Positions 3,355-58,172 of a DNA stretch of 64,000 nucleotides are shown piece by piece. The stretch is taken from the IMG/VR virus record IMGVR_UViG_3300043399_001190; one strand, 5' to 3'. Source of the DNA: a virus. Lineage: Duplodnaviria > Heunggongvirae > Uroviricota > Caudoviricetes. Within the stretch, counting starts at the first letter, position 1. The number at the start of each line of letters is the position of its first letter. Both the position numbers and the translations under genes were made by a program. The notes under the pieces are model-generated. The model made no database searches and was not told the DNA's origin. It saw only the letters and a program-made list of their open reading frames with translations.

Positions 3355-4426
3355 TTTTTACTTCCGGTGCGTGTTTAGGAATTTTGTCTGGATTTTGTTC
3401 CCAGAACATTTTCGCTTGTTCTCCTATCTTACCCTCATAAGGGCAAGGAGTACCAGCGGCCATCATAGCATCAAACACGCGACGATCTTGGCACATGGTT
3501 GCAACAGCGGCAACCTTCATACCCATATCGTACAGAGTTTTACTAAGCTTTAAACGTTCACAGTTTAAATCTCTCACTGTTCCACCAGAACTAACACCAA
3601 AAATTTGTGTTTGTACAGCACCACTAGATCCTGTTGTACATAAGTCATTGTTTCCACCACTCATCATTGTTGGAGCAATTGCAGTAGGAGGTGGCTGAAT
3701 AACCTTCTGAGTGATTTCCGAAGTATTCAAATTGTTGTTGGTCATTGAACCACTTTGAATATTCTGATTCACATTGTTATTTGTTGAAGAACTTGTACTT
3801 GTATTATTATTGTTGTTTACATTACTGCTTGTACTTGAACTCACATTATTATTATTAAATGTCTGAGTACCAGAATTAATATTTGTATTCACGTTGTTAT
3901 TGGTGCTGGTACTGGTATTATTTGTATTCAGTGTTTGTGTACCAGAATTTACATTATAATTTGTATTACTGTTTGTACTTGTGCTTGTACTATTATTGTT
4001 GAATGTTTGAGTGCCCGAATTAATTTGATTCACGGTACTTGTGCTTGTGTTGACATTATTATTATTAAATGTCTGAGTACCAGAATTCACATTGTTATTG
4101 TTATATGTCATGGTACCTGAATTGACATTATTATTATTAAATGTCTGAGTACCAGAATTCACATTATTGTTATTGTTTGTATAAGTTACGGAACCACTCA
4201 TAACATTATTGTTGTTATTTGTTATAGTTCCATTTGTTGTAACCGTACTTGTACTAGTGCTAGTACTGTTAGTTGTGCTGGAGTTTGTAGTGTTTACTGT
4301 GCTGGTGCTAGTGGAATTATTATTAGTATCCACCAAAGTTGTCGAGTCATAGGTTGTTTGAGCAACACTAATTGATGTAATCATAGCAAAAAGCACCAAA
4401 AGCGGTGTCTTTTTGAATGACATTTT
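3287..4426 (-). CDS. secreted Asn/Ser/Thr-rich tandem-repeat protein with Cys-containing C-terminal domain
   Basis: track ORF 3287..4600 but likely start is internal MSFKKTPLLVLFAMITSISVA (signal peptide) at 4426 preceded by AAAGAGGTAAAA RBS; repeats VNSGTQTFNNNN. Confidence 0.5.
   Translation of the reverse strand, partial: KMSFKKTPLLVLFAMITSISVAQTTYDSTTLVDTNNNSTSTSTVNTTNSSTTNSTSTSTSTVTTNGTITNNNNNVMSGSVTYTNNNNNVNSGTQTFNNNNVNSGTMTYNNNNVNSGTQTFNNNNVNTSTSTVNQINSGTQTFNNNSTSTSTNSNTNYNVNSGTQTLNTNNTSTSTNNNVNTNINSGTQTFNNNNVSSSTSSNVNNNNNTSTSSSTNNNVNQNIQSGSMTNNNLNTSEITQKVIQPPPTAIAPTMMSGGNNDLCTTGSSGAVQTQIFGVSSGGTVRDLNCERLKLSKTLYDMGMKVAAVATMCQDRRVFDAMMAAGTPCPYEGKIGEQAKMFWEQNPDKIPKHAPEVKNEIYKNIGLGSLLGLVVYNLFK
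3700..4330. repeat. imperfect tandem DNA repeats (~60-66 nt units) inside the N/S/T-rich protein gene
   Basis: near-identical copies of attattattaaatgtctgagtaccagaattcacatt at ~3838, ~4059, ~4125 and related units. Confidence 0.7.
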
Positions 4427-4511: not shown

Positions 4512-4823
4512 ATGGCAAATATTAGAGGAATTAAATTGGTAACGGGTGAGGAAGTTATTTCCGAGGTAATCATCCAGCCAGATGGTAGATTCTTACTCAA
4601 GAATCCTGTGCAGCTAAGGATGGTTCCACCACAGATTGCAGGTAGCCAGCCATCTATGGGCTTTGTTCCTTTCCCAGCCTTCGGCAGTCAAGGTGAAAAT
4701 ATATTTGTAGAACCACTACATATAGTGTACAATTACACTCCTGACGAACAAATCGTTTCAAATTACAACCAAATGTTCGGTGCAGGCATCATCACCCCAT
4801 CTAAACAAATTATAACTGGATAA
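4512..4823 (+). CDS. hypothetical protein upstream of DNA polymerase
   Basis: track ORF 4494..4823; start moved to MANIRG (GGAGA RBS); stop overlaps pol start (TAATG). Confidence 0.45.
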   Translation: MANIRGIKLVTGEEVISEVIIQPDGRFLLKNPVQLRMVPPQIAGSQPSMGFVPFPAFGSQGENIFVEPLHIVYNYTPDEQIVSNYNQMFGAGIITPSKQIITG

Positions 4824-7354
4824 TGAATTTTTACACAAACGTACAATGTATTGGCAACAACATCTTTTACCGTGGTGTTCTCGACGGTAAAAGAATCAAA
4901 ACTAAGATACCTTATCAGCCAACACTTTATGAAAAATCGAGAAGTGTGAAAAACTTCACATCACTTGAGGGCGACTATCTTATGCCCATCAAGTTTGGTT
5001 CAATTCGTGAAGCAAAAGAATACCTGAGACAGTTTGAAAATGTCTCGGGTAAAACCATTTATGGTCAAAACAGATTCGAATATGCATTTATCGGTGAACA
5101 ACATAAAGGTATGGTTGAATGGGATTTCGATCAAGTAATGATTGGCGTACTTGATATTGAGGTCGGCTCAGAAAATGGTTTCCCTGATCCTTATGAAGCA
5201 AATGAACCAATTACAGCCATTGCATTGAAATATGTTGGCGGTCACATGTTTGTTTGGGGTTGCGGAGACTATAACACAAAAGGTGATGAAAGATATCTGA
5301 AGTGTAAAGATGAATATCAACTGTTGAAGCTTTTCTTGAAATTCTGGCAAGAAAAATGTCCAGATGCACTGACTGGTTGGAACACGAAGTTCTTCGACGT
5401 GCCTTATTTGGTGAACCGCATTCGTAAAATTCTCGGTGAAGATGAAGCTAAAAAGCTTTCTCCTTGGAATATGATATCTCAAAGAGAAGCCTTTGTTATG
5501 AACCGAAAACTTGTGGTTTACGACTTGGTTGGTATCGGTGATTTTGACTACATGGAACTATACAAGTGGTATGCTCCTGGTGGTAAATCACAAGAATCGT
5601 ATCGACTAGACAACATCGCAAATGTTGAAATTGGTGAAAAGAAACTCGACTATTCTGAATATGATTCTCTACATCAACTTTACAAACTAGACTATCAAAA
5701 GTTTATTGAATATAACATCAAAGACGTTGAACTGATTCTTCGACTTGATGATAAACTGAAGTTGCTGGAACTTGGTTTGACTCTTGCTTATGATACCAAA
5801 ACAAATTACGATGATGTATTTGCACAAACACGCATGTGGGATGCACTGACATACAATCATTTGATGGAGCGTAAAATTGTTGTTCCACCAAGAATCATTA
5901 AAGAGAAAGATGCCGCTTTCGAAGGTGCTTACGTTAAAGAACCTCAAGTTGGTCAACACGAATGGGTTGCAAGTTTTGACTTGAATTCTCTGTATCCTCA
6001 CTTGATGATGCAATACAATATTTCACCAGAAACGTTGATTGAACCTGAAGATTATAATGAAGCAATGAGAGAAGTTCTTTCACAAGGTGTTTCTGTTGAA
6101 AAACTCTTGAACTGTCAAGTTGACACCTCAAGTTTGGTCAATGTAACTCTCACACCGAACGGTCAATTTTTCCGCACAGATATTCAAGGCTTTCTTCCGA
6201 AGATGATGGAAGAAATGTATGAAGATCGTAAGAAATTTAAAAAGTTGATGATTCAGGCTAAGAAAGAATACGAGGTAGAAAAAGATGCATCGAAAAAATA
6301 CGAAATTGAAAAGCGTATTGCCAGATACAACAATCTGCAACTCGCAAAAAAGGTCTCTCTCAATTCTGCTTATGGCGCTTTGGGTTCTCAGTATTTTAGA
6401 TTTTACGACCTACGGATGGCTTTGGGTGTCACTACTGCTGGCCAGTTATCTATTCGTTGGATTGAAAATGCTCTCAACAAATACATGAACGGTCTTTTGA
6501 AGACTGAAACTGATTATGTGATTGCATCGGATACTGATTCGATTTACTTGCGCCTTGGTGAATTGGTTAAAAAAGTGTATGGTACAAAAGATGGTATCTC
6601 TTTACCGAAAGAGAAAATTATCGACTTCATGGACAAAGTTTGTGAAGATAAAATTCAACCATTCATTGATAAGTCTTATAAAGAGTTGGCTGATTATGTA
6701 CATGCATTTGCACAAAAGATGCAAATGAAACGTGAAGCTTTGGCCGACAAAGGTATTTGGACTGCCAAAAAGCGTTACATCATGCATGTGTATGACAATG
6801 AGGGTGTTCGTTACTCTGAACCTGAAATGAAAGTCATGGGTTTGGAAATGATTAAGTCATCCACTCCTGCACCCGTGCGCGAGAAGATGAAAGATGCACT
6901 TCAAATTATGATGAAAGGTACAGAAAGTGATATTCACAATTTCATATCTTCATTCAAGGATGAATTTAAAAATCTTGCTGTCGAAGATATTTCTTTCCCG
7001 AGAGGTATCAACGGATTGAAAGAGTATGGTGATCGAACCACAATTTACAAAAAAGGTACACCAATTCATGTGAAAGGTGCATTACTATATAATTATTATC
7101 TACTTGAAAAAGATTTGTCAAAAAAATATCCACTGATCCAAGAAGGTGAGAAAATCAAATTTACCTATTTGAAGAAACCCAACCCCTTCAAAGATACCGT
7201 AATCTCATTTCCTGGTAGACTTCCTCCGGAATTTGACATTCAAGAATTTATCGATTATGATATGCAATTCGAAAAAACTTTCCTTGATCCGATTAAGGTT
7301 ATTTTGGATTGTATGAATTGGACAACAGAGAGAAAAAATACTCTCTTCGATTGA
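4823..7354 (+). CDS. 43: DNA polymerase, family B (T4 gp43-like) with 3'-5' exonuclease domain
   Basis: 843 aa; motifs FDLNSLYPHLM (motif A DxxSLYPS) and IASDTDSIYL (motif C YGDTDS), exo motif region; T4-like synteny with uvsX/41. Confidence 0.92.
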   Translation: MNFYTNVQCIGNNIFYRGVLDGKRIKTKIPYQPTLYEKSRSVKNFTSLEGDYLMPIKFGSIREAKEYLRQFENVSGKTIYGQNRFEYAFIGEQHKGMVEWDFDQVMIGVLDIEVGSENGFPDPYEANEPITAIALKYVGGHMFVWGCGDYNTKGDERYLKCKDEYQLLKLFLKFWQEKCPDALTGWNTKFFDVPYLVNRIRKILGEDEAKKLSPWNMISQREAFVMNRKLVVYDLVGIGDFDYMELYKWYAPGGKSQESYRLDNIANVEIGEKKLDYSEYDSLHQLYKLDYQKFIEYNIKDVELILRLDDKLKLLELGLTLAYDTKTNYDDVFAQTRMWDALTYNHLMERKIVVPPRIIKEKDAAFEGAYVKEPQVGQHEWVASFDLNSLYPHLMMQYNISPETLIEPEDYNEAMREVLSQGVSVEKLLNCQVDTSSLVNVTLTPNGQFFRTDIQGFLPKMMEEMYEDRKKFKKLMIQAKKEYEVEKDASKKYEIEKRIARYNNLQLAKKVSLNSAYGALGSQYFRFYDLRMALGVTTAGQLSIRWIENALNKYMNGLLKTETDYVIASDTDSIYLRLGELVKKVYGTKDGISLPKEKIIDFMDKVCEDKIQPFIDKSYKELADYVHAFAQKMQMKREALADKGIWTAKKRYIMHVYDNEGVRYSEPEMKVMGLEMIKSSTPAPVREKMKDALQIMMKGTESDIHNFISSFKDEFKNLAVEDISFPRGINGLKEYGDRTTIYKKGTPIHVKGALLYNYYLLEKDLSKKYPLIQEGEKIKFTYLKKPNPFKDTVISFPGRLPPEFDIQEFIDYDMQFEKTFLDPIKVILDCMNWTTERKNTLFD

Positions 7355-7365
7355 AAAGGAATAAT

Positions 7366-8418
7366 ATGAGCATACTTGAGAAAATCAAAAAAAATAGCAG
7401 CATCAAAGATTCAGCCATTCTGGCTAAATCTAAATTTTTCACTGATAAAGATATGATTCCCACTGCCGTGCCGGCGGTAAACATTGCTTTGTCTGGACGC
7501 CTAGATGGGGGTCTAACTCCAGGTCTAACAATGTGGGCGGGACCTTCAAAGCATTTCAAAACCGCATTTTCGCTTTTGATGGCTAAATCCTATCTAGACA
7601 AATATCCAGAATCCGCACTTTTGTTTTATGATTCTGAGTTTGGTACACCACAAGCGTATTTCGATACGTTTGGCATTGATGCAAATCGTGTGTTACATAC
7701 TCCTATCATGGATATTGAACAACTAAAATTTGACATTATGAATCAATTAACAAATCTAGAACGGGGTGATCGTCTAATCATTGTTATTGATTCTATTGGT
7801 AACTTGGCTTCGAAAAAGGAAGTTGAAGATGCTTTGGATCAAAAATCTGTGGCAGATATGAGTCGAGCAAAACAAGTCAAGAGTTTGTTCCGAATGGTTA
7901 CACCACACTTGACAATGAAAGACATTCCAATGGTTGTTGTCAATCATACGTATAAAGAAATTGGAATGTTCCCGAAAGATATCGTCGGTGGTGGAACCGG
8001 TTCTTATTATTCCGCCGATAACATTTTTATTCTTGGTCGTCAGCAAGAAAAAGATGGTACAGAAATTACTGGCTACAATTTTATAATCAATGTAGAAAAG
8101 TCACGCTATGTCAAAGAAAAATCTAAAATACCTGTTAATGTATCTTTTGGTGGTGGCATTAACAAGTGGTCTGGTCTACTTGATATTGCACTTGAATCTG
8201 GGCATGTTATTAAACCTAGCAATGGTTGGTATTCAAAAGTAAACATGGAAACAGGTGAAGTTGAAGATAAAAAATATAGAGAAAAAGATACAAATACTTC
8301 CGAATTTTGGTTGCCTATCTTGAAGCAAAAATCCTTCAGAGATTTTGTTGAAACGAAATATCGTGTTACCAATTCCGAAATTATTCAAGAACAGGATGAA
8401 GAAGATGAAACCGTTTAA
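7366..8418 (+). CDS. uvsX: UvsX RecA-like recombinase
   Basis: near-colinear similarity to T4 UvsX recalled from memory (NIALSG..AGPSK.FK, FYDSEFG, IDSLGNLASKKE, VNHTY, NVEKSR.VKEKSK); start set at MSILEK rather than track 7309. Confidence 0.93.
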   Translation: MSILEKIKKNSSIKDSAILAKSKFFTDKDMIPTAVPAVNIALSGRLDGGLTPGLTMWAGPSKHFKTAFSLLMAKSYLDKYPESALLFYDSEFGTPQAYFDTFGIDANRVLHTPIMDIEQLKFDIMNQLTNLERGDRLIIVIDSIGNLASKKEVEDALDQKSVADMSRAKQVKSLFRMVTPHLTMKDIPMVVVNHTYKEIGMFPKDIVGGGTGSYYSADNIFILGRQQEKDGTEITGYNFIINVEKSRYVKEKSKIPVNVSFGGGINKWSGLLDIALESGHVIKPSNGWYSKVNMETGEVEDKKYREKDTNTSEFWLPILKQKSFRDFVETKYRVTNSEIIQEQDEEDETV

Positions 8419-8737
8419 GGAAGGTGTTGACTTTGTTTACGAAATTCCAAAGACAGAAGATACAACAGTTGGAATTAAAATTATCAGAGGAGAATATTCT
8501 GATACCATTTACCAATATGGTAAAGTGAAATTTGAAGAAGAGTCTGATGGTGCCATTTATCTGAGATTCGTTTATAATGTCTTAGAATCTCCTTTAGATA
8601 AGGAGGAACTAGAAAAGAGTTCGCAGTTCAAAGACTATATCGGCGATATTCTAGTTAATATTATCTCAGCAAATTTGGACAAAGGATTGATTGATGAGGC
8701 TGGAACAGACTATTCTGAAGAACCTGATTCACAATGA
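8396..8737 (+). CDS. hypothetical protein in the position of T4 gene 40
   Basis: track ORF 8345..8737; internal ATG at 8396/8405 overlaps uvsX stop; overlaps 41 start by 46 nt. Confidence 0.4.
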   Translation: MKKMKPFKEGVDFVYEIPKTEDTTVGIKIIRGEYSDTIYQYGKVKFEEESDGAIYLRFVYNVLESPLDKEELEKSSQFKDYIGDILVNIISANLDKGLIDEAGTDYSEEPDSQ

Positions 8738-10094
8738 GGAATTTTTGAGGAAAGTTTTACCTTTCCTCAAAGAGGATTATTTCAATGATCGAACAGAAAA
8801 AGTTATTTTTAAAGAAATAACTGAGTTCACAAATCAATATAATAATTCACCAACAACGGAAGCTTTGGGTTTATCTCTGAAAGATAAGCGCAATCTAACA
8901 AGCGATGAGGTTGAAAAATGTGATGCCGTTCTAAAAGATTTGGCAATTGCACCGGTCGAAAAAACACAAATTCAATGGTTGATTGATAAGACGGAAAAAT
9001 TTTGCCAAGAAAAGGCAATTTACAATGCAGTTCTGGGTTCAATTTCTATTCTAGACGGTAAAGATAAAAGTCAAGACAAAGGTTCTATTCCTAAAATTTT
9101 GTCAGATGCACTTGCTGTCAGTTTCGATTCGTCGGTCGGTCATGATTATTTGGAAGATTATGATGAGCGTTATGATTTTTATCATCGAAAAGAGGAAAGA
9201 ATTCCTTTTGATTTGGAATACTTCAATAAGATAACCAAGGGTGGATTGCCTGCGAAGACTTTGAATATTGCTCTTGCTGGTACTGGTGTTGGTAAATCTC
9301 TTTTCATGTGTCATGTTGCCGCAGGTTGTATGACACAAGGTAAAAATGTATTGTATATTACACTTGAAATGGCTGAAGAGAAAATTGCCGAGAGGATTGA
9401 TGCGAACCTACTGAATGTTTCCGTCGATGATCTTATGCAATTGACTAAAGATATGTATGATAAAAAAGTCAAGCGTGTCAAAGAAATGACGACAGGTAAA
9501 CTTATTATCAAAGAGTATCCAACAGCCTCGGCTTCGTCCATACATTTTAGGACACTTTTAAATGAACTCAACCTCAAAAGGAACTTTGTTCCGGACATTA
9601 TTTTCATTGACTATCTTAATATTTGTTGTAGTGCAAGAATCAAAGCCGGAGCAAACGTTAATTCTTACACCTACGTTAAAGCCATCGCCGAAGAATTGCG
9701 AGGTCTTGCGGTTGAATTCGGAGTACCAATTGTTTCTGCGACACAAACAACAAGAAGTGGTTATACTTCTTCAGACCCAGGATTGGAAGACACAAGTGAA
9801 TCTTTTGGTTTGCCAGCAACCGCAGATTTGATGTTTGCACTCATTTCTTCCGAAGAAATGGAAGCACTCAATCAAATTATGGTCAAGCAGTTGAAGAATC
9901 GTTATTCTGATCCAACACAATACAAAAGATTCGTCTTGGGTATTGACAGGTCGAAAATGAGACTATATGATGTTGAACAGGATGCACAATATGGTATTGC
10001 GGATTCTGGTAAACAAGTGCAGGACAAACCTTTAAACACATTTGGAATGAGGGAAATGAAGCCGAAAAATAAATTTGCAGGAATTAAAGTATAA
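8691..10094 (+). CDS. 41: replicative DNA helicase (T4 gp41, DnaB family)
   Basis: strong similarity to T4 gp41 recalled from memory (VSFDSSVGHDYLEDYDERY, Walker A AGTGVGKS, LYITLEMAEE, KNFVPDIIFIDYL). Confidence 0.93.
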   Translation: MMRLEQTILKNLIHNEEFLRKVLPFLKEDYFNDRTEKVIFKEITEFTNQYNNSPTTEALGLSLKDKRNLTSDEVEKCDAVLKDLAIAPVEKTQIQWLIDKTEKFCQEKAIYNAVLGSISILDGKDKSQDKGSIPKILSDALAVSFDSSVGHDYLEDYDERYDFYHRKEERIPFDLEYFNKITKGGLPAKTLNIALAGTGVGKSLFMCHVAAGCMTQGKNVLYITLEMAEEKIAERIDANLLNVSVDDLMQLTKDMYDKKVKRVKEMTTGKLIIKEYPTASASSIHFRTLLNELNLKRNFVPDIIFIDYLNICCSARIKAGANVNSYTYVKAIAEELRGLAVEFGVPIVSATQTTRSGYTSSDPGLEDTSESFGLPATADLMFALISSEEMEALNQIMVKQLKNRYSDPTQYKRFVLGIDRSKMRLYDVEQDAQYGIADSGKQVQDKPLNTFGMREMKPKNKFAGIKV

Positions 10095-41079: not shown

Positions 41080-41661
41080 TTGAAAATGCAAACCCAATTT
41101 GACCCCTCCGCCGTATCATTTACAGTTGCTGGTAAAGCAATCAAACACCTAGCAAAACTACACCTAAACGAAAAGCTCAAGAACGTTCCATACAAACTCC
41201 GAGAATTCACAATAGCCAATTGTGTTCTTTCCGGTGGTTGTTTTGCGTCCCTTTTCCACAACGAAAAGGTCAACGACTTTGACCTCTACCTCAAAAACAT
41301 TTCCATGATAGTGGAATTAAACAACCTCCTTAAAGAATACAAAGGTTTGAATAAAGAATTGGTAGAAGAAGCTTATGCTGATGTTTTCGTAGACGGTAAA
41401 CTCACAACCATAAAAGCAGTCACCTTAGACAATAGACTACAGTATATCACTATGGTGGACTTCCAAACCGCAAAGCAAAACATGGATTATGTCCATTGTA
41501 CGGTGAGCTATGATCCGTCTAAGGATACTCTATGGCTCTCAGAACTCCAATTTGATTGCATTCAAAACAAAAAATTGGTTGCTAATAACCTAACATCAAT
41601 CACTGCTAAAAGGGGAGAAAAATTCCGTAGTAGGGGTTGGGTTTCATCATTTAGACCATGA
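41080..41661 (+). CDS. putative minimal nucleotidyltransferase (Pol-beta superfamily fold)
   Basis: VLSGGCFASLFHNEKVNDFDLYL fits hG[GS]-x(9-13)-DhDh; motif-only. Confidence 0.4.
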   Translation: MKMQTQFDPSAVSFTVAGKAIKHLAKLHLNEKLKNVPYKLREFTIANCVLSGGCFASLFHNEKVNDFDLYLKNISMIVELNNLLKEYKGLNKELVEEAYADVFVDGKLTTIKAVTLDNRLQYITMVDFQTAKQNMDYVHCTVSYDPSKDTLWLSELQFDCIQNKKLVANNLTSITAKRGEKFRSRGWVSSFRP

Positions 41662-42080
41662 AAACGATTATTGCGGGTTCCAGAGACTTCAATGATTTCG
41701 ATTACATGAAAGCATACCTTGCTACGATACCACCATGGATAGAAATCACTGAGGTCGTTTCCGGATGCGCCCAAGGTGCAGATACGCTAGGAGAGAAATG
41801 GGCAGAACTCAAAAGAATTCCAGTAAAACGCTTTCCAGCAGAATGGGAAAGACTAGGTAAGAGAGCAGGTCCAATAAGAAACGCAGAGATGGGAATCTAT
41901 GCAGAAGGGCTCATTGCTTTTTGGGACGGTAAATCCAGAGGTACACAACACATGATACTGTTCATGCAGCAGAATAATAAGTGGACCTATGTGGTACGTA
42001 CAGATATACCCTGGTGTGGTAAGTATGAAAACCGAAGCCCCGTGTTAAACAATGTAGAGTATACACAAGAGAGATTATGA
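41658..42080 (+). CDS. DUF2493 / SLOG-family (YspA-related) protein
   Basis: GSRDF..EVVSGCAQGADTLGEKWA..IPVKRFPAEWE..GKRAGPIRNAEM matches DUF2493 consensus recalled from memory. Confidence 0.65.
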   Translation: MKTIIAGSRDFNDFDYMKAYLATIPPWIEITEVVSGCAQGADTLGEKWAELKRIPVKRFPAEWERLGKRAGPIRNAEMGIYAEGLIAFWDGKSRGTQHMILFMQQNNKWTYVVRTDIPWCGKYENRSPVLNNVEYTQERL

Positions 42081-42265
42081 ACTACGTAGAATCATTCTTA
42101 ACCATATCAATATACCAACTGAACCTATTCTCATTTATGTTAGGTATGGTATATACCCTATGTAATGTGCGCTGGGGTAACCAGTCAAAACTCTGGATGC
42201 ATGTAGTGATTTACACTATGTTCGTAGCATTGTATTATTTTGCGAAGAGTAATGGTTACGTATAA
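42077..42265 (+). CDS. small hydrophobic protein
   Basis: ORF track; last plus-strand gene before GC-rich cassette. Confidence 0.4.
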   Translation: MNYVESFLTISIYQLNLFSFMLGMVYTLCNVRWGNQSKLWMHVVIYTMFVALYYFAKSNGYV

Positions 42266-42440
42266 ATTTCGAAACTCCTCTGGAACCTCCTGGAAAAAAT
42301 TTTGAGGATGTGCTAGATAGAAAACTCGAAAATGTGCTGGGGCCTCCAGAAAATAAATTTTAGAAAAAAAGAGTTTGGGCCATAGGCGAAAATTACTTAC
42401 ATAGCGTTATTTTTAGCACACTGCTGCCATATTTTTAGAG

Positions 42441-42464
42441 CCAAAAAAGGGCGCCGAAGCGCCC
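42441..42464 (-). terminator. rho-independent terminator for the minus-strand cassette (GGGCGC-TTCG-GCGCCC + TTTTTTGG on minus strand)
   Basis: plus strand ccaaaaaagggcgccgaagcgccc; U-tract only on minus strand. Confidence 0.75.
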
Positions 42465-42486
42465 CTAAATCACTGCCAGCCCCAAC

Positions 42487-42585
42487 TTAAACCACTGCCC
42501 TCCACACCATCAGGTCCAGAGCAAGCACAACAGCCGCAGCCATACCAACCACCACGAAACCGATCATTTCTGCTTTAGTATACAT
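42487..42585 (-). CDS. 32-aa hydrophobic peptide MYTKAEMIGFVVVGMAAAVVLALDLMVWRAVV
   Basis: AAGGAG RBS 6 nt upstream on minus strand; single TM; last gene before terminator. Confidence 0.45.
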   Translation of the reverse strand: MYTKAEMIGFVVVGMAAAVVLALDLMVWRAVV

Positions 42586-42596
42586 TTGTTTACTCC

Positions 42597-42818
42597 TTAG
42601 GCGATTTCTTTACGAATTTGGGACTCTTGCAATTCAGCCTGACGCTTGGCTGCGGTGCTGAGGTCTTCAGCGAGGAAAACGAGGTCATCAAAGGCCTCGC
42701 GGGCAATCTGGCGGTCGTGGGCGTGTTCAGACTTTTCCAGATCACGGGTGGCATGGAACTTGACCAGAGCCTCGGCGTAACGGATAGCGGCTTGCTCAAC
42801 GGTGTGGTTCAGAATCAT
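42597..42818 (-). CDS. small helical protein (73 aa)
   Basis: ORF track; AAGGAG RBS; promoter copy A upstream. Confidence 0.55.
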   Translation of the reverse strand: MILNHTVEQAAIRYAEALVKFHATRDLEKSEHAHDRQIAREAFDDLVFLAEDLSTAAKRQAELQESQIRKEIA

Positions 42819-42845
42819 TTGGTGCTCCTTTGTTTCAGTGGTTGG

Positions 42846-42873
42846 ATTATGGCGGATCTGGTAGGAATGGCAA
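42846..42873 (-). promoter_or_regulatory. cassette promoter copy A (TTGCCA-16-CATAAT, minus strand)
   Basis: revcomp of tggattatggcggatctggtaggaatggcaa. Confidence 0.6.
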
Positions 42874-42909
42874 CTGTATACTTTAGTATTCCACCGGAGT
42901 GGTCAACCA

Positions 42910-43091
42910 TTACTTTTCAATACGGACGCACATGGGTTTTTTAGTGGTCATTGCCGGGCGGGCATCATCCACGGCCTTGTAGAGGGCTACGGCAGCCACC
43001 TCACACTTTTCCTTGGAGGAAAACTCCGGTCCCACGCTCCAAGTGCTGGCGTGACCAAGAACAACCAAAACCCAAACAATCGTGTTCATTT
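42910..43091 (-). CDS. 59-aa protein with signal-peptide-like N-terminus (MNTIVWVLVVLGHASTWS)
   Basis: not in ORF track (below cutoff); RBS AAGGAAACGAAATG; promoter copy B upstream. Confidence 0.45.
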
Positions 43092-43118
43092 CGTTTCCTT
43101 ATCTACTATGGAATGGAT

Positions 43119-43146
43119 TATGACAGGATCCGTGGATTTGGCAACC
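43119..43146 (-). promoter_or_regulatory. cassette promoter copy B (TTGCCA-16-TCATAAT) followed by 10-bp inverted repeat CCACTCCGGT/ACCGGAGTGG
   Basis: read directly. Confidence 0.65.
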
Positions 43147-43175
43147 ACTCCGGTATTGTTGACCGGAGTGGTGGA

Positions 43176-43382
43176 TTACTTGCCATCCTCCCATGTGCCT
43201 GTAGTATAATCCACGGCTTCCGCCACCACCTCACCATCCGGACCAAACTTGGTGTAAGAATAAAAGTTTACACCAACCACCTGAGTGTAATAACCTTTGG
43301 TTTCTTCCACCACTGACATTTCCACATCATATTCCCGGAGAAGGGCATGGAGCTTTTGTTTGAATTCTTCGGTTCTGGTCAT
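43176..43382 (-). CDS. hypothetical protein (68 aa)
   Basis: ORF track; AAGGAG RBS. Confidence 0.55.
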   Translation of the reverse strand: MTRTEEFKQKLHALLREYDVEMSVVEETKGYYTQVVGVNFYSYTKFGPDGEVVAEAVDYTTGTWEDGK

Positions 43383-43409
43383 CGTGTGCTCCTTCGAATC
43401 AATGGTTGG

Positions 43410-43437
43410 ATTATGACAGAATCCGTGGATTTGGCAA
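43410..43437 (-). promoter_or_regulatory. cassette promoter copy C
   Basis: ttggattatgacagaatccgtggatttggcaacca. Confidence 0.65.
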
Positions 43438-43445
43438 CCAGTGGG

Positions 43446-43805
43446 TTACAGAAGAACCTCTAGGTCCGAGTGGTCCAGGCGGTCCTCAGCCTCAAAGGTC
43501 TCCGGTTCAAACTCCATGAGCTTGGGAGCCTTGGGTTCAGCCTTAGGCTTCGCCGCCTTCACCACCTTGGCTGGCTTGACCTCCTTACGGAGCACCACGG
43601 TATGCGGCACCGGTTCTTGAACCACCTTCACACTCTCCAGCACCTGGCCAGGCTGGCCATACTTTTTATGGAAGAATGCATCCACCTTCTGCCAGGTCTT
43701 ACGGAAGGCCTCAGCCTTACCACCATACCAGCCTTCGAAACCATTCCGATCCTTGCGGAAAACAATGGTAAAATCGGGATAACGGACTTGGGCTTTACGT
43801 GCCAT
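43446..43805 (-). CDS. hypothetical protein (119 aa), basic Lys/Pro/Ala-rich middle
   Basis: ORF track; AAGGAA RBS. Confidence 0.55.
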   Translation of the reverse strand: MARKAQVRYPDFTIVFRKDRNGFEGWYGGKAEAFRKTWQKVDAFFHKKYGQPGQVLESVKVVQEPVPHTVVLRKEVKPAKVVKAAKPKAEPKAPKLMEFEPETFEAEDRLDHSDLEVLL

Positions 43806-43834
43806 TTTTGTTCCTTTAGTGTATAATTAAGAGT

Positions 43835-43921
43835 TTAACGGAGAGCCATGGCTAGAGCCAAACCCATGGCAATGCCGGACAGGTAGGTTGTAATGAAAAT
43901 GAGATTTTGAATTTTTTCCAT
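43835..43921 (-). CDS. 28-aa hydrophobic peptide MEKIQNLIFITTYLSGIAMGLALAMALR
   Basis: AAAGGAAACCAAATG RBS; promoter copy D upstream; embedded in spurious track ORF 43835..44230. Confidence 0.4.
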   Translation of the reverse strand: MEKIQNLIFITTYLSGIAMGLALAMALR

Positions 43922-43952
43922 TTGGTTTCCTTTCTGATTTACTATGGAATGG

Positions 43953-43980
43953 ATTCTACAGGTTCTGGAAGGTTTGGCAA
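43953..43980 (-). promoter_or_regulatory. cassette promoter copy D (TTGCCA-16-TAGAAT variant)
   Basis: ggattctacaggttctggaaggtttggcaa. Confidence 0.55.
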
Positions 43981-44012
43981 CCACGGTTGGAATAGTTGAC
44001 CAATCCGGTGGA

Positions 44013-44660
44013 TTATGCGGCCACTGCCAAGCGGATGACCTTCGCCATTTTCCGACCGTGGGCGGGGTAGCCGACCACTGCCACGGACTTATCGTAGCAG
44101 GCGCGGCAGCCGTTACACTTTCCACCATGATTGTAAGCACCGCAAACCGTAACGCCAGCGGGGACCGTATCGGCATCCGGCAGGATGGTGGAGCCATGCA
44201 CACCAGCGGTGAAGGTACCATCCACGGCATCGGAAGAAAACCGAACCATTACATTGTCCAGCCTTTGCATGGCGGCGATGATGGGCTGGAATTTAGGGAA
44301 TTTTGCCATGCGGGTCGGCAACCAATGCTTAACGTGAGGAGTGCCAGCCATAACCTGGTAGATTTTCTCAGCCAGCCCCAGGCTGTACATATCGCCGGAA
44401 TCAAACCAGCGGAAATACTTGGCTTTTTTGAGGGCTTGGATCATATCAGCCACCCAGCCATCCCGCTGCCAGTCTTCCTTATTGAAGGCGCGGGGAGCCT
44501 TGACCGTGGAGAATGCATACATTCCCGTGGTGGCGTAGCATCCAGAGCAGGCGGAGACCAGTTTACCATCGGAACCAACCGAACCAGGGCATGTCTCCAA
44601 GGCTTCCAGGGACCAGGATTGGATGCCGTCAAGCTTAGAGGTTTTGGAGAGCTTTACCAT
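44013..44660 (-). CDS. Cys-motif protein (CPGS..CSGCYA), possibly phage Gp37/Gp68 (DUF5131)-like
   Basis: track ORF 44013..44723 trimmed to MVKLSK start after promoter copy E and AAGGACA RBS; family call tentative. Confidence 0.45.
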   Translation of the reverse strand: MVKLSKTSKLDGIQSWSLEALETCPGSVGSDGKLVSACSGCYATTGMYAFSTVKAPRAFNKEDWQRDGWVADMIQALKKAKYFRWFDSGDMYSLGLAEKIYQVMAGTPHVKHWLPTRMAKFPKFQPIIAAMQRLDNVMVRFSSDAVDGTFTAGVHGSTILPDADTVPAGVTVCGAYNHGGKCNGCRACYDKSVAVVGYPAHGRKMAKVIRLAVAA

Positions 44661-44691
44661 TTGGTGTCCTTGTTGCGTTACGATGGAATGG

Positions 44692-44719
44692 ATTATGACA
44701 GAACCGGAGGTTTTGGCAA
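44692..44719 (-). promoter_or_regulatory. cassette promoter copy E
   Basis: ggattatgacagaaccggaggttttggcaacca. Confidence 0.65.
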
Positions 44720-44750
44720 CCATCCTAGGATAGTTGACCGGAAAAGGAGG

Positions 44751-44975
44751 TTATTCCTCCTCAGCCTCTTCCTCTTCCTCAAAGTGTTCCAGAAGTTGGT
44801 CCCAATCCACGGCGGAGAGGTTGACCATGTCCTTCAGGGGACCATCCGGCATATCGTCATATTGTTCCTCCAGCATGTAGCGGATGGACTCTACATCCTC
44901 ACGGGATTCCGGATTGCACCAGACATTGACCAACCAGGTTTCGCGGTTGGTCCAGCCATTGTAACCTTGAGACAT
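44751..44975 (-). CDS. small Trp-rich protein with poly-Glu C-terminal tail (EEEEEAEEE)
   Basis: ORF track; RBS AAAGGAAACGAAAATG; promoter copy F upstream. Confidence 0.55.
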   Translation of the reverse strand: MSQGYNGWTNRETWLVNVWCNPESREDVESIRYMLEEQYDDMPDGPLKDMVNLSAVDWDQLLEHFEEEEEAEEE

Positions 44976-45003
44976 TTTCGTTTCCTTTCAAACTATGGAA
45001 TGG

Positions 45004-45031
45004 ATTATGACAGAATCCGTGGAGATGGCAA
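45004..45031 (-). promoter_or_regulatory. cassette promoter copy F
   Basis: ggattatgacagaatccgtggagatggcaaca. Confidence 0.65.
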
Positions 45032-45034
45032 CAA

Positions 45035-45163
45035 TTATTTGGTTCTGATTTTAAGATAGAACCGTCCATTGTGGACGTATCCGCGGAGGAGACCAGGCAG
45101 CCCGTATTCCTTAGCCATGGCTCGCATGGCTTGGTAGTGGTTGGTTTTGTGTTTTTTCATCAT
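45035..45163 (-). CDS. 42-aa very basic peptide MMKKHKTNHYQAMRAMAKEYGLPGLLRGYVHNGRFYLKIRTK (possibly leaderless)
   Basis: track ORF 45035..45217 trimmed because its 5' part is the promoter repeat; ATG 7-10 nt after -10. Confidence 0.3.
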   Translation of the reverse strand: MMKKHKTNHYQAMRAMAKEYGLPGLLRGYVHNGRFYLKIRTK

Positions 45164-45170
45164 GGAATGA

Positions 45171-45198
45171 AGTGTAGCAGAGCCAGAGGATTTGGCAA
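45171..45198 (-). promoter_or_regulatory. cassette promoter copy G (degenerate -10 TACACT)
   Basis: ggaatgaagtgtagcagagccagaggatttggcaacca. Confidence 0.4.
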
Positions 45199-45362
45199 CC
45201 ATCTGGAAATGACCCACCGGATCGGTCGGGTACTGGTTGCCGGGGGTTCGGATTGTGGTATAATAGACTCATTCGAAAGCGGGACTGGGGTGGACACGGA
45301 GGCTGCGCGTCATTCCGCACTGTAATACTTCCGTACTACCGCCGGCGGAAGACGTTTGGACC

Positions 45363-45392
45363 ATTATAACATGCGGAGCAAAGCTTTGGCAA
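45363..45392 (-). promoter_or_regulatory. promoter copy H (TTGCCA-18-TATAAT) with downstream TTGACCGGA flank
   Basis: attataacatgcggagcaaagctttggcaacc. Confidence 0.45.
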
Positions 45393-45456
45393 CCAGTCTC
45401 AAAAATACTTGACCGGAACACTGTAATACTTTTTGAATACTTGCCATTCTCGCTGA

Positions 45457-45744
45457 TTGTGTCATAATAGCATTATTGAAACAACGAATGAAAGTAAAAG
45501 CATGAAAGTAGTACAATCGTATTCATCTAAAGAATGTAACGAATTTGATATTGTCGTCAATGATGTTAAAATTGCATATTATATTGAACATTTCAAAGAT
45601 GAAAATTGTAATGTTCTAGAAAAAACATTATATGAAATTTATTATGATTATAATGAAGAAGATGACGATTATACATCATCTTTTGCAACTGATGATTATA
45701 ATGAATTGCAAGACGTTATAGATTCAATTTACGAAAATCTGTAA
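45457..45744 (+). CDS. acidic hypothetical protein (real start may be MKVVQSY at 45502)
   Basis: ORF track. Confidence 0.4.
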   Translation: MCHNSIIETTNESKSMKVVQSYSSKECNEFDIVVNDVKIAYYIEHFKDENCNVLEKTLYEIYYDYNEEDDDYTSSFATDDYNELQDVIDSIYENL

Positions 45745-45834
45745 TACTTTAGTAATCCAGCACTGTGCTGGGTTAATACTTGTCGGTGGCGGTCGGTGTG
45801 TTATAATGGCATTTTCAACAATGAAAGGCACTGT

Positions 45835-54544: not shown

Positions 54545-54742
54545 ATGATAATTGTTAAGGTTAATCTAAACAAGTATCTTTATACTTTACTTGGCCGCCA
54601 AGAGTTAATAGATTCTTGGTGGCATTCTCCCAATAAAGCATTTGAAAATAAAACTCCTGATGAAGTATATCAATCAGGCGAAGAAGGTCGGGAAAAAGTT
54701 GCAAAATATATCCTAGGATTTATTGGCGCCGGCTATAGTTGA
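54545..54742 (+). CDS. hypothetical protein
   Basis: track ORF 54515..54742 trimmed to MIIVKV after GGAG. Confidence 0.35.
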   Translation: MIIVKVNLNKYLYTLLGRQELIDSWWHSPNKAFENKTPDEVYQSGEEGREKVAKYILGFIGAGYS

Positions 54743-54770
54743 CCGGACTGTGTGAGTACTTTTTTCTGAA

Positions 54771-54798
54771 TTGCCGTTTTCGCCAGTTGTGTTAGAAT
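54771..54798 (+). promoter_or_regulatory. promoter TTGCCG-16-TAGAAT preceded by ATAGTTGACCGGA motif (54734-54746)
   Basis: read directly. Confidence 0.5.
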
Positions 54799-54834: not shown

Positions 54835-55662
54835 ATGCCGCGTGGCGTTCCCAAAGCTGGTTTCCGCAACACCAAAAAGCGTATGGCTCAAGCCAATGAG
54901 GTCGTGATGGCCAAAGCCACCGAGTCCCGTTTCTCCATCAACCAGCGATTCGAATTCGTTGGTGATATGGTCCTCATGCTGGTTAACGGTGACCAAGCGT
55001 CCGTGGTTGTGTCTGGTCCTGGCGGTCTTGGTAAGTCTCACACCGTGACGGCTGCCCTTGAGTCTGCTGGTATGACCGATGTGACCGTGCTGGATGAGTT
55101 CCAGGTTGGTTCCGTGCTGAACACCGCCAAGTCCTACCGTGTTATCAAGGGCTACTCCACCCCCAAAGGTCTGTATCGTACACTCTACGAAAACAAGGAC
55201 GGCGTGGTCGTGTTTGACGATTGCGATTCCGTGCTTAAGGACCCAGTTTCTCTTAACCTTCTTAAGGCTGCTCTGGATTCGTATGACCGCCGTATTATCT
55301 CTTGGCGTGCTGACATGCGCGATGAGGAATTGCCACAGTCGTTTGAATTCAAAGGTCGCGTGATCTTTATTTCCAATCTTCCCTCTGAAGCCATGGACCA
55401 AGCCATCATTACCCGTTCCATGGCTGTTGATCTGTCTATGACTCCCGCTCAGAAAATCGAGCGTATGCAATTCCTGTTGGATCAACCCAACTTCATGCCT
55501 GAATATGCTAAGAATTTCAAACAAGATGCATTGGACCTTATCAATTCTCTCCGTGATTCTGTGAAAGAATTGTCTCTTCGCACTCTTATTCAAGTTACTA
55601 AGATTCGTAAATCGGCTGGTGCTAAGTGGAAAGACCTTGCTGAATATACTATCGTGGGTTGA
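54835..55662 (+). CDS. AAA+/P-loop ATPase (Walker A GPGGLGKS, Walker B VVVFDDCD), strongly GC/codon-shifted
   Basis: motifs read directly; codons ctg/cgt/ggt/tcc dominate unlike neighbours. Confidence 0.55.
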   Translation: MPRGVPKAGFRNTKKRMAQANEVVMAKATESRFSINQRFEFVGDMVLMLVNGDQASVVVSGPGGLGKSHTVTAALESAGMTDVTVLDEFQVGSVLNTAKSYRVIKGYSTPKGLYRTLYENKDGVVVFDDCDSVLKDPVSLNLLKAALDSYDRRIISWRADMRDEELPQSFEFKGRVIFISNLPSEAMDQAIITRSMAVDLSMTPAQKIERMQFLLDQPNFMPEYAKNFKQDALDLINSLRDSVKELSLRTLIQVTKIRKSAGAKWKDLAEYTIVG

Positions 55663-57008: not shown

Positions 57009-58172
57009 ATGAATCGTAATGCTCGCGCCTTTGTTGAAGCTGCAACCTCAGTGTATGGTAAGAATGCCGTTCTGACTCGCTCAGATATTGATGCGGTTGT
57101 AAACCATAAGTCCGTACCTTTTCCTTTTTGGTTTGTTACCAAAAGCGAATATCGTTATGGCCGCGGGCAATACCAACTTCCTTCTCTGCCAGAAGACGGT
57201 GTAAATACGGTTGCACAACAAACGGCGCCACAAAAATCTCAGCCTGAAGTTGTGGACATGGCCGCTACGGTGACCGTCTTGCGTCAAAAGCGCCTGCATG
57301 ATGATTCAGACACGGCTATTCCTAAAAAGTTTCCTGGTTTTGTTCCTTTTGGTTTTTATAAAGACCTGTTGAACATTCTACAGTCTAAACAATTCTATCC
57401 TGTCTTTATCACCGGTCTTTCTGGTAACGGTAAGACATTGATGGTTGAACAAGCATGCGCGGTGGAAAACCGTGAATGTATTCGTGTGAATATTTCCGTT
57501 GAAACGGATGAATCTGATCTTATCGGTTCAAATACTCTTGTTGACGGTAACGTTGTCTACCGTGATGGTCCTGTTATCACCGCCATGAAACGTGGTGCCA
57601 TTCTTCTGATTGATGAGGTTGACCGTGGTTCAAACAAACTGATGTGTCTCCAAGGTATCATGGAAGGTAAACCCTACTTCAATAAGAAGTCTGGTGAATA
57701 CGTGTACCCAGCACCAGGCTTTAACGTGATCGCCACGGCGAACACCAAAGGTCGTGGTTCAGAAGAAGGTCGCTATCTCTCTCAGATTCTTGATGATGCA
57801 TTCCTGGAACGTTTTCCTATTACCGTTGAGCAAAACTATCCTTCGGACAAAATCGAATTGAAGATTCTTAAACCTCTTCTGAATGATGATGAGTTTGCGG
57901 AAAATCTTGTGAAGTGGGCTGATGTTATTCGTAAGACATTTGCTGACGGTGGTGTTGATGAGGTAATTTCGACTCGCCGTTTGGTGCATATTGCAAAAGC
58001 CTATGGCATTTTTAAGAATCGGCAAAAAGCAATTGAATTGTGCGTTGCTCGTTTCGATGAGGAAACCAAGAATTCGTTCTTGGACCTTTATGCTAAAGTT
58101 GACATTAAAGTGGCAGAAGCCAATACTGCACCCGTGGTGACTGCTGTACCGAACGAAGAAATTCCGTTTTAA
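57009..58172 (+). CDS. CobS-like MoxR-family AAA+ ATPase
   Basis: Walker A GLSGNGKT, Walker B ILLIDEVD, sensor region; phage cobS-like. Confidence 0.7.
   Translation: MNRNARAFVEAATSVYGKNAVLTRSDIDAVVNHKSVPFPFWFVTKSEYRYGRGQYQLPSLPEDGVNTVAQQTAPQKSQPEVVDMAATVTVLRQKRLHDDSDTAIPKKFPGFVPFGFYKDLLNILQSKQFYPVFITGLSGNGKTLMVEQACAVENRECIRVNISVETDESDLIGSNTLVDGNVVYRDGPVITAMKRGAILLIDEVDRGSNKLMCLQGIMEGKPYFNKKSGEYVYPAPGFNVIATANTKGRGSEEGRYLSQILDDAFLERFPITVEQNYPSDKIELKILKPLLNDDEFAENLVKWADVIRKTFADGGVDEVISTRRLVHIAKAYGIFKNRQKAIELCVARFDEETKNSFLDLYAKVDIKVAEANTAPVVTAVPNEEIPF

Follow-up and report, generated by a model that had tools for sequence, protein, structure and literature searches.

A GC-rich island of repeated promoter-gene cassettes resembling PeSL elements in an uncultured T4-like phage

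Introduction

Promoter-early stem-loop (PeSL) elements are made up of a strong sigma-70-like early promoter, a stem-loop, an upstream tract rich in AT, and the start codon and Shine-Dalgarno sequence of the gene that follows (PMC2839356, PMC4122927). They cluster in hyperplastic regions ahead of ORFans, where recombination yields indels, replacements, and mini-circles (PMC2839356, PMC4122927). Such elements have been described in the phages phi1/RB49, T4/PST, and KVP40/nt-1, for which the exchange was shown experimentally (Arbiol et al. 2010, PMC2839356; Comeau et al. 2014, PMC4122927); in cyanophage S-PM2, the mechanism was judged unlikely (PMC4503421). Here, we examine an array of comparable elements in a virus of the Caudoviricetes (IMG/VR record IMGVR_UViG_3300043399_001190). 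The 64,000-nucleotide (nt) stretch of its DNA that was analyzed is called “the window”; in it, eight minus-strand copies of a promoter element, lettered A to H, lie among small genes between 45.5 and 42.4 kb.

Two other described systems bear on this locus. The morons of lambdoid phages are autonomous promoter-gene-terminator units of atypical composition, and the early promoters of T4 have a consensus that extends beyond the hexamers. Like morons, the genes studied here are small and accessory, with their own promoters and a composition unlike that of the surrounding genome; morons, however, occur singly in temperate phages, inserted between essential genes and unrelated to one another, with no common repeated promoter and no arrays. 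As with T4 early promoters, these are predicted to be host-RNA-polymerase promoters of a T4-type phage, conserved upstream of the -35 and having a TG-extended -10. In contrast to T4, two tiers occur in one genome, a generic one and a far more uniform island tier, and conservation runs into the transcript.

The similarities to PeSLs are more extensive. The genome is T4-like, and the order of parts is the same: stop codon, upstream region, -35/-10, Shine-Dalgarno sequence, start codon. The elements form dense hyperplastic arrays before ORFans, the indels and replacements that distinguish relatives break at elements, and the consensus is lineage-specific. Unlike PeSLs, the present elements have a TTGCCA -35 with an extended TGn-CATAAT -10, a stable stem-loop in only a minority of cases, conservation of the first ~12 transcribed bases, and, in most copies, a fixed-phase upstream GGTCAAC in place of the simple AT-rich tract. 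Also, the cassettes and their cargo constitute a GC-rich island in a low-GC genome, and they are known from sequence alone. We consider it probable that this locus is a hyperplastic early-gene island of an uncultured T4-like phage in which PeSL-like cassettes mediate gene exchange.

Results

Eight promoter elements in one array

Reading of positions 42000-45800 and a search for GGTTGCCAWNNCYWC located the eight copies, all of them co-oriented with the cassette genes; their promoters span 42846-45392 (Table 1). When aligned, they read GGTTGCCA-N13-TGn-CATAAT-CCATTCCATAGTA, followed by ~10 nt, AAGGA, and ATG. A position weight matrix (PWM) made from all eight scores seven at 43-61 bits and H at 22; the top score elsewhere in the window is 17.6, and that in shuffled sequence is 11.5. 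An independent consensus scan, which returned 26 promoter-like sites vs. 8.8 +/- 3.1 in shuffles, also recovered all eight. Every copy reported in an earlier, sequence-only reading of this DNA was thus found again. The 43-mer quoted in that reading is matched at ≤ 3 mismatches by B and F only (0 expected in shuffles).

The hexamers match at 9-11 of 12 positions in all copies, and TG precedes the -10 in six; they are predicted to be near-consensus sigma-70-type early promoters. The sequence-only reading had given the pattern as TTGCCA-16-CATAAT. The 16-nt spacer holds for seven copies, H having 18 nt, and the -10 differs in D (TAGAAT), G (TACACT), and H (TATAAT). MotA-type middle promoters were rejected on sequence: the gap between TTGCCA and the -10 is 16 nt, like that of a sigma-70 -35, not ~12 nt like that of a Mot box. 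The Shine-Dalgarno sequence AAGGA lies ~8 nt before the ATG, and such a 3' end, with ribosome-binding sequence and start, is present in 7/8 copies. The -10 is 27-31 nt from the ATG in six copies; in G, the ATG is at +7, and H has no ORF. Because its ATG lies 7 nt after the -10, the mRNA of the 42-aa peptide behind G may be leaderless. The same arrangement, with the ATG 6-7 nt after the -10, occurs in several units (G; the L091 element at 3627; elements of L002, L018, and L012 that end in CCATTCC-ATGATGA), whose transcripts would also be leaderless; elsewhere, the same ATGATGA seems to be part of the 5' untranslated region, with a normal Shine-Dalgarno sequence and ATG after it. (Loci designated L001, L002, L004, L009, L014, L029, L044, L091, etc. 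are relatives from IMG/VR.)

Copies A to G, each of which has a small gene after it, form a tight sub-family: they agree in the spacer, in the distance of the Shine-Dalgarno sequence, and in the transcribed start (CCATTCCATAGTA). H, at the head of the array, is a promoter of the generic type; its transcribed start is different, and the ~150 nt downstream of it have no ORF and are antisense to the 45237-45312 core described below. The earlier claim of a copy before every small gene therefore stands for seven copies, while p119 and TM32 have none of their own and H precedes no ORF. With eight copies in 3.2 kb, the density is ~1 element per 0.4 kb, vs. ~7 generic promoters in the next 18.5 kb.

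Conservation extends beyond the hexamers, as had been noticed. Among related loci, 64 non-redundant island promoters (those with GC-rich DNA downstream) gave the consensus ggTTGCCAtTtcC.c.ggttCtG.tATAATcCAt.Cat, with the spacer tTtcC.c.ggttCtG and the transcribed start cCAt.Cat in common. The 34 generic promoters of the same genomes, which have AT-rich DNA downstream, have essentially only the hexamers in common.

Homology to relatives breaks at the elements

The phage is T4-like. Its genes for PolB (4823-7354), UvsX (7309-8418), and a gp41-type helicase (8691-10094) are in the T4 order (gp43-UvsX-gp41); primase, RNR, and one tRNA-Met are also encoded in the window, and PolB, along its full length, shares 50 % identity with that of T4-like cyanomyoviruses. 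A megablast search of the INPHARED phages with the island and 12 kb of flank gave no DNA-level match; relatives were found in IMG/VR on contigs of up to 172-175 kb.

L091 is a close relative (96 % amino-acid identity in GP88), and its collinear blocks are listed in Table 1. Four or five of the homology junctions between it and the window fall inside elements. Element D aligns to two L091 elements, its 5' half with that at 4809 and its 3' half with that at 5360 (88 %); it looks like a hybrid, as would be left by an element-to-element deletion or insertion. Although coding DNA is ≤ 92 % identical, a 41-nt core of E has an exact match (100 %) at L091 3790-3830, and a 40-nt core has one in the positional orthologue at L091 4069. 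Between F and B, identity is 93 %, compared with only 80 % (F) and 72 % (B) to their own positional orthologues, a similarity that we count as probable intragenomic exchange.

Homologous elements also stand beside non-homologous neighbors in other relatives: F vs. L002 (90.5 % over 74 nt, the L002 element driving a different gene), E vs. L001, D vs. L029, and A vs. L009, L029, and L014. The upstream half of A is part of the GP88 promoter in L014, L029, and L044; in L009, A precedes an unrelated gene.

Upstream motifs and stem-loops

The motif CCGGTCAAC / ATAGTTGACCGGA that had been noticed next to several copies is present at B, E, and H (1 mismatch) and recurs at 54738. Of 165 non-redundant elements, 60 have GGTCRAS with its first base exactly 21 or 20 nt ahead of the -35 (the background rate per 45-nt window is 2.7 %). 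Its inverse, TTGACC, was seen in ~25 elements, at -31 to -36, and the 11 that have both motifs read TTGACC-N5/6-GGTCAA. An AT-rich, AATACTAAAGTATAC-like tract abuts the -35 in 33/165 elements, including copy A; most others have the GC-richer CCGGTCAACTATTCC.

The inverted repeat reported at copy B was confirmed (z = -4.8). Those at E (-2.0) and F (-2.1) are marginal, and the other five copies have none that is significant. In the family at large, the upstream 47 nt (n = 142) have a mean z of -1.23 vs. -0.48 in control windows (p = 8e-6); the core of family elements from -35 to +12 gave no fold signal. In L012, L027, and L028, a true terminator (ACCCACC-ACTCC-GGTGGGT, then a T-run) lies ahead of the promoter.

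Three exact minus-strand copies of AAGTATTACAG (45320-45330, 45421-45431, 45739-45749) resemble the AT-rich tract in AAAGTATACAG-TTGCCA and have no promoter after them. They may be half-elements left by recombination; their count is marginally above chance (4 sites vs. 1.3 expected, reached in 4/100 shuffles).

Cassette genes and the spread of the element

The products of the cassette are small (Table 1). Its Cys-motif protein, for which DUF5131 had been suggested, has no such match in Pfam (E ≤ 0.1) and matches GP88 (PF17338) and DUF7227 instead; its AlphaFold2 (AF2) model has a predicted local distance difference test (pLDDT) score of 83 and gave no decisive fold match. GP88 genes occur in > 589 IMG/VR loci, with 4652 database homologues. 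Whether other genes behind the element have homologues behind it elsewhere was a check that the sequence-only reading had proposed, and two do: p73 in L004 (52 % identical) and p68 in a metagenome contig found by the metagenome scan. Pattern-based searches of IMG/VR gave no relative of either p68 or p73, sp59 has no homologue in the 84 IMG/VR loci, and PADLOC returned zero matches for the cassette proteins. TM32 orthologues terminate the cassettes of L029 and L091. The terminator that had been placed at the end of the cassette is indeed there, and an equivalent hairpin follows the TM32 orthologue in L029.

Metagenome contigs were scanned with a degenerate pattern, which matched at least 120 loci; at least 47 of them contain more than one element, and the largest array among the matches listed numbers 7 in 3.9 kb. 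In those multi-element loci for which the GC profile was checked, the elements lie in patches of 48-54 % GC with flanks of 32-40 %. Some single-element matches in uniformly GC-rich contigs are probably due to chance. Behind at least 203 elements from related viral and metagenome loci, there are 159 distinct downstream ORFs in 62 families, with 42 singletons and a median length of 72 aa. Seven of eight common cargo families have no match in Pfam, the remaining one being a second GP88-type family. The elements are thus clustered in a hyperplastic region and associated with ORFans.

A compositional island with an old history

Bins at 42-45 kb have a GC fraction of 0.46-0.54, vs. roughly 0.33-0.41 in most other 1-kb bins (the phage is ~37 % GC), and the GC content at third codon positions (GC3) of the nine cassette genes is 0.48-0.65; core genes have values of 0.30-0.40, and the plus-strand gene next to the island has 0.14. 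The compositional contrast with the flanks, first judged by eye, is therefore real. In 18/18 low-GC relatives examined, there is an island of 1.4-3.1 kb at 45-52 % GC, vs. 33-40 % for the rest of the locus; throughout the clade, the island is ~12-17 GC points above the genome. GP88 is the constant anchor in all 18, while the companion genes vary.

GP88 was not found in cultured T4-like phages; it is found in small Caudoviricetes and in phages of Acinetobacter, Pelagibacter, Roseobacter, and Caulobacter. In mid-GC contigs (0.42-0.62), the GP88 gene has the composition of its genome, and the TTGCCA promoter is missing upstream in all but L077. In a rough neighbor-joining (NJ) tree, the GP88 copies of the promoter-carrying low-GC genomes form one clade.

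The plus strand, too, has promoters of the form TTGCC(A/G)-N13-TGn-TA(T/G)AAT, at 45237, 45441, 48160, 53305, 54771, 56316, 56954, and 60386; most of these precede AT-rich small genes, and the same is true in relatives. Because it also drives AT-rich plus-strand early genes, this type appears to be the ordinary, resident early promoter of the clade. Since the type is resident and, except in L077, absent upstream of GP88 in mid-GC contigs, the promoters did not arrive with the cargo. The cargo itself is probably foreign in origin, its acquisition old, and its GC offset persistent; the age follows from the offset in all 18 relatives and from the single clade of GP88 genes. What had been called imported GC-rich cargo was thus right as to probable foreignness, and the promoters do not belong to the import; “imported” would here mean old acquisition or maintained composition, not recent insertion. 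A polarized-substitution test for maintenance of GC3 (S>W:W>S) gave 104:88 and 57:58 for GP88 and 67:180 and 78:204 for low-GC controls; the latter ratios are a parsimony artifact, so the test is uninformative.

An antisense unit at the island edge

Between H and G, a predicted strong antisense promoter is followed by a conserved core that can be written ATTCGAAAGCRG(G)ACTGGGGTGGACRCNGGRGCTG. The pair occurs in 26 distinct loci, among them, besides the window, L009, L012, L013, L015, L017, L018, L020, L022, L029, L032, L044, L050, L091, L092, L106, L109, L121, L132, L143, L147, L164, and L203. Most of the loci examined have it at the border of the GC island, directed away from the latter. The core is taken to be non-coding because indels occur in it, and overlapping transcripts would result because the antisense promoter converges with H. 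A search of 41.8-46.2 kb against Rfam (E ≤ 1) found nothing. Folding of the H-G intergenic RNA gave z of -1.1 to +0.5 on either strand; a stable structure is therefore unsupported, and the variants within the core resemble register slips, not covariation. The unit possibly gives rise to a small RNA or a leader, or acts as an R-loop-type site.

Neighboring features

The inverted ATAGTTGACCGGA, TTGCC-type promoter, and phrog_1250 gene at 54.7 kb are kept together in L029, L020, and L016. This gene (54835-55662, +; GC 0.49) and that of a MoxR/CbbQ-type AAA ATPase (57009-58172, +; GC 0.44) are GC-shifted within an AT-rich early block; a TTGCC-type promoter lies ahead of each, and phrog_1250 has the inverted ATAGTTGACCGGA as well. 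Beyond the cassette terminator, ~175 nt of non-coding DNA (42266-42440) separate it from a convergent plus-strand gene and are conserved in L091 (77.6 %), L004, L006, and L019. They hold two similar small units of hairpin plus T/A-run (CTGGAGGCCCCAG... and CCAGGAGGTTCCAG...), possibly extra or bidirectional terminators. Beside the island, a 193-aa protein (41080-41661, +) is 49 % identical to an L091 protein that has a precomputed Pfam match to Gad2 (anti-Gabija); in the Pfam scan (E ≤ 0.1), Gad2 was not listed for the window protein itself. The next gene (41658-42080) encodes a SLOG/YspA-family protein.

Table 1. Coordinates of the cassette and associated features, and correspondence of the window with L091 (last ten rows).
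Feature	Position	Strand	Details
Divergent early promoter	45441..45468	+	Opens AT-rich small-gene block; TTGACCGG / CCGGTCAA motif in common with H
Copy H	45350..45435	-	TTGCCA-18-TATAAT with TG, 45392-45363; CCGGTCAAG upstream; PWM 22; conserved in L029
Antisense unit	45237..45312	+	Between H and G; TTGCCG-N16-TATAAT, 45237-45264, then conserved G-rich ~45-nt non-coding core ATTCGAAAGCGGGACTGGGGTGGACACGGAGGCTG
Element G	45157..45240	-	Hairpin ACCC(G)ACCG-atc-CGGTGGGT; -35 45198-45193; -10 TACACT 45176-45171; PWM 49.8; orthologue L091 3627
42-aa basic peptide	45035..45163	-	Behind G; orthologues in L091 and L002
Element F	44990..45073	-	-35 45031-45026; -10 45009-45004; CCATTCCATAGTT; PWM 54.2; upstream part overlaps 3' end of 42-aa gene
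DUF7249 protein	44751..44975	-	74 aa, poly-Glu tail; behind F; Pfam PF23907
Element E	44678..44761	-	Terminator-like AGGAGG-aataa-CCTCCTTTT; CCGGTCAACTATCC; -35 44719-44714; -10 44697-44692; PWM 59.9
GP88-family Cys-rich protein	44013..44660	-	215 aa; Pfam PF17338 1.6e-26 and DUF7227; phrog_1392
Element D	43939..44022	-	AATCC-ACC-GGATT hairpin and GGTCAACTATTCC; -35 43980-43975; -10 TAGAAT 43958-43953; PWM 48.3
TM28	43835..43921	-	28-aa peptide with a single transmembrane (TM) segment; behind D
p119	43446..43805	-	119 aa; second gene behind D, without own promoter
Element C	43396..43479	-	-35 43437-43432; -10 43415-43410; CCAACCATTGAT; PWM 55.2
p68	43176..43382	-	68-aa ORFan behind C; absent from L091 and L029
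Element B	43103..43186	-	10-bp hairpin CCACTCCGGT/ACCGGAGTGG containing GGTCAAC; -35 43144-43139; -10 43122-43117; CCATTCCATAGTA; PWM 60.7
sp59	42910..43089	-	59 aa, hydrophobic signal-like N-terminal segment; behind B
Element A	42832..42915	-	Upstream GGTTGACC...GGAATACTAAAGTATACAG; -35 TTGCCA 42873-42868; -10 CATAAT 42851-42846; start CCAACCACTG; PWM 42.8
p73	42597..42818	-	73-aa ORFan behind A; GC3 0.61
TM32	42487..42585	-	32-aa single-TM peptide; last cassette gene, without own promoter
Intrinsic terminator	42447..42466	-	AGGGGCGCTTCGGCGCCCTT then TTTTGG; 8-bp stem, 6 GC pairs, T-run; closes cassette
Outlying same-type unit	54734..54798	+	ATAGTTGACCGGA, then TTGCCG-N16-TAGAAT (54771-54798), driving GC-rich phrog_1250 gene 54835-55662
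L091 3334-3830	45491-44995		86.4 % nt; control region, G gene, element F; ends at 9th transcribed base of F
L091 3831-4048	44994-44740		No identity; DUF7249 vs. unrelated ~70-aa gene
L091 4049-4845	44739-43944		92.5 % nt; starts at E upstream motif, ends at 9th transcribed base of D
L091 4846-5338			Two genes and one element, missing from window
L091 5422-5585	43918-43831		No identity; TM28 vs. unrelated 56-aa gene
L091 5586-6000	43830-43446		72.5 %; p119
Absent from L091	43445-43175		Element C and p68
L091 6005-6100	43174-43079		78.8 %; element B
L091 6101-6321	43078-42587		No identity; sp59, element A, p73 vs. one 73-aa gene
L091 6331-6427	42582-42486		70.4 %; TM32

Discussion

Gene exchange by PeSL-like cassettes would work as follows. 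Each of the seven near-identical cassettes would supply a strong promoter of the host sigma-70 type, the transcribed start CCATTCCATAGTA, and a Shine-Dalgarno sequence ~8 nt before the ATG of one or two small genes, nearly all of them ORFans; H would head the array, and one intrinsic terminator would close it. Host RNA polymerase would transcribe every unit independently right after infection. Homologous recombination between elements would then delete, insert, or replace the genes between them. We propose that this is so because the ~60-100-bp cassettes are direct repeats, both within a genome and between co-infecting relatives, and that such recombination makes the island a gene-exchange compartment. 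The likeness to PeSLs drawn in the sequence-only reading is borne out by promoter anatomy, clustering, ORFans, and breakpoints; the stem-loop and the AT-rich tract are only partly present. The locus thus appears to work like a PeSL array, with incomplete membership because of the stem-loop.

Several points weigh against this account. Only B has a clear case of the stem-loop by which PeSLs are defined, and A, C, D, G, and H do not stand out from the cassette background; in the family, z is below -2 in only 26 % of elements vs. 14 % of control windows. Elements take up nearly all of the intergenic space, which could in part account for the breakpoints that fall in them, and the conservation of spacer and transcribed start among ~70 %-identical genomes could reflect regulatory constraint, not recombination. 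Promoter strength and activity, transcription starts, and early timing are predictions from the consensus. The recombination mechanism is likewise a deduction from sequence, to which mini-circles or other intermediates would be invisible.

Regulation may itself account for part of the pattern. The extra conservation (spacer tTtcC.c.ggttCtG, start CCATTCCAT, and GGTCAAC 20-21 nt upstream of the -35) could serve the control of these early genes by a phage or host protein or through a function of the 5' untranslated region, with gene turnover incidental; such control could also coexist with recombination. The phased GGTCRAS in 60/165 elements, the palindrome TTGACC-N5/6-GGTCAA in 11, which resembles a dimer operator, the recurrence of the motif, in inverted form, at the remote GC-rich gene (54.7 kb), and the persistence of the sub-family consensus among genomes whose coding DNA is only ~70 % identical all favor it. 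However, no candidate DNA-binding protein was identified, more than half of the elements do not have the motif, and neither the hybrid D nor the closeness of F and B beyond that to their positional orthologues is explained. Regulation instead of exchange is thus a tentative alternative, and we judge it possible. That these are simply ordinary strong early promoters, similar by convergence, in an island that varies through unrelated illegitimate recombination, strikes us as unlikely. The type TTGCCA-N13-TGn-TATAAT is indeed used genome-wide on the plus strand, and T4 early promoters, too, are conserved beyond the hexamers. Yet the island copies score 43-61 bits in the PWM, vs. ≤ 17.6 for generic promoters of the same genome, an element core can show full (100 %) identity beside coding DNA of ≤ 92 % identity, and homology blocks start or stop inside elements at four or five junctions.

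A recent horizontal import of the whole island, promoters included, from a GC-richer donor would fit the GC3 values (0.48-0.65 vs. 0.30-0.40 for the core), the GP88 homologues at 64-72 % identity in contigs of 45-62 % GC and in 42-44-kb Caudoviricetes, and the absence of GP88 from cultured T4-like phages. Against it, the promoter type is missing upstream of GP88 in all mid-GC contigs but L077, and the low-GC T4-like GP88 genes form one NJ clade, with the island and its offset in all 18 relatives; any import is therefore old, and a recent one is quite improbable. The notion that the repeats are protein-coding, or are selfish non-promoter repeats of the repetitive extragenic palindromic (REP) or miniature inverted-repeat transposable element (MITE) type, is hardly credible. 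It draws on a 371-aa plus-strand ORF (43944-45059) that reads through three copies. This ORF, already suspected in the sequence-only reading, is spurious: the minus-strand ORFs beneath it have Pfam/PHROG matches, hundreds of homologues, and a coding-type codon-position GC pattern, and only genes on the cassette strand are called over the homologous stretch of L091. The strict co-orientation with genes, the canonical -35/-10 spacing, and the Shine-Dalgarno sequence and ATG of the elements likewise speak against this notion.

A broader proposition goes beyond exchange between PeSL-like cassettes, and we regard it as doubtful: that the island is a compositionally self-maintained gene-exchange compartment common to a clade of low-GC freshwater T4-like phages. 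In such a compartment, a promoter sub-family with a phased upstream half-operator, TTGACC-N5/6-GGTCAA, may mark the cassettes, and high recombination, selection, or both may hold both the cassettes and their cargo at ~50 % GC vs. the 37 % background. The antisense unit at 45237-45312 may be a control or priming site, whether a regulatory RNA or an R-loop-type origin such as oriF/oriG of T4.

In the literature that we searched, no study extends PeSLs to uncultured freshwater T4-like phages or ties them to a compositional island; PeSL-type shuffling is documented there only for a few pairs of cultured coliphages, Yersinia phages, and Vibrio phages. The present locus belongs to an uncultured T4-like lineage, and promoter-cassette-mediated gene exchange looks general in the evolution of T4-like genomes. 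Two testable puzzles are the GC offset that the island shows throughout the clade and the conserved antisense element that borders it. The element also offers a sequence handle with which early accessory genes can be mined from metagenomes, and these may include genes for host takeover or anti-defense.

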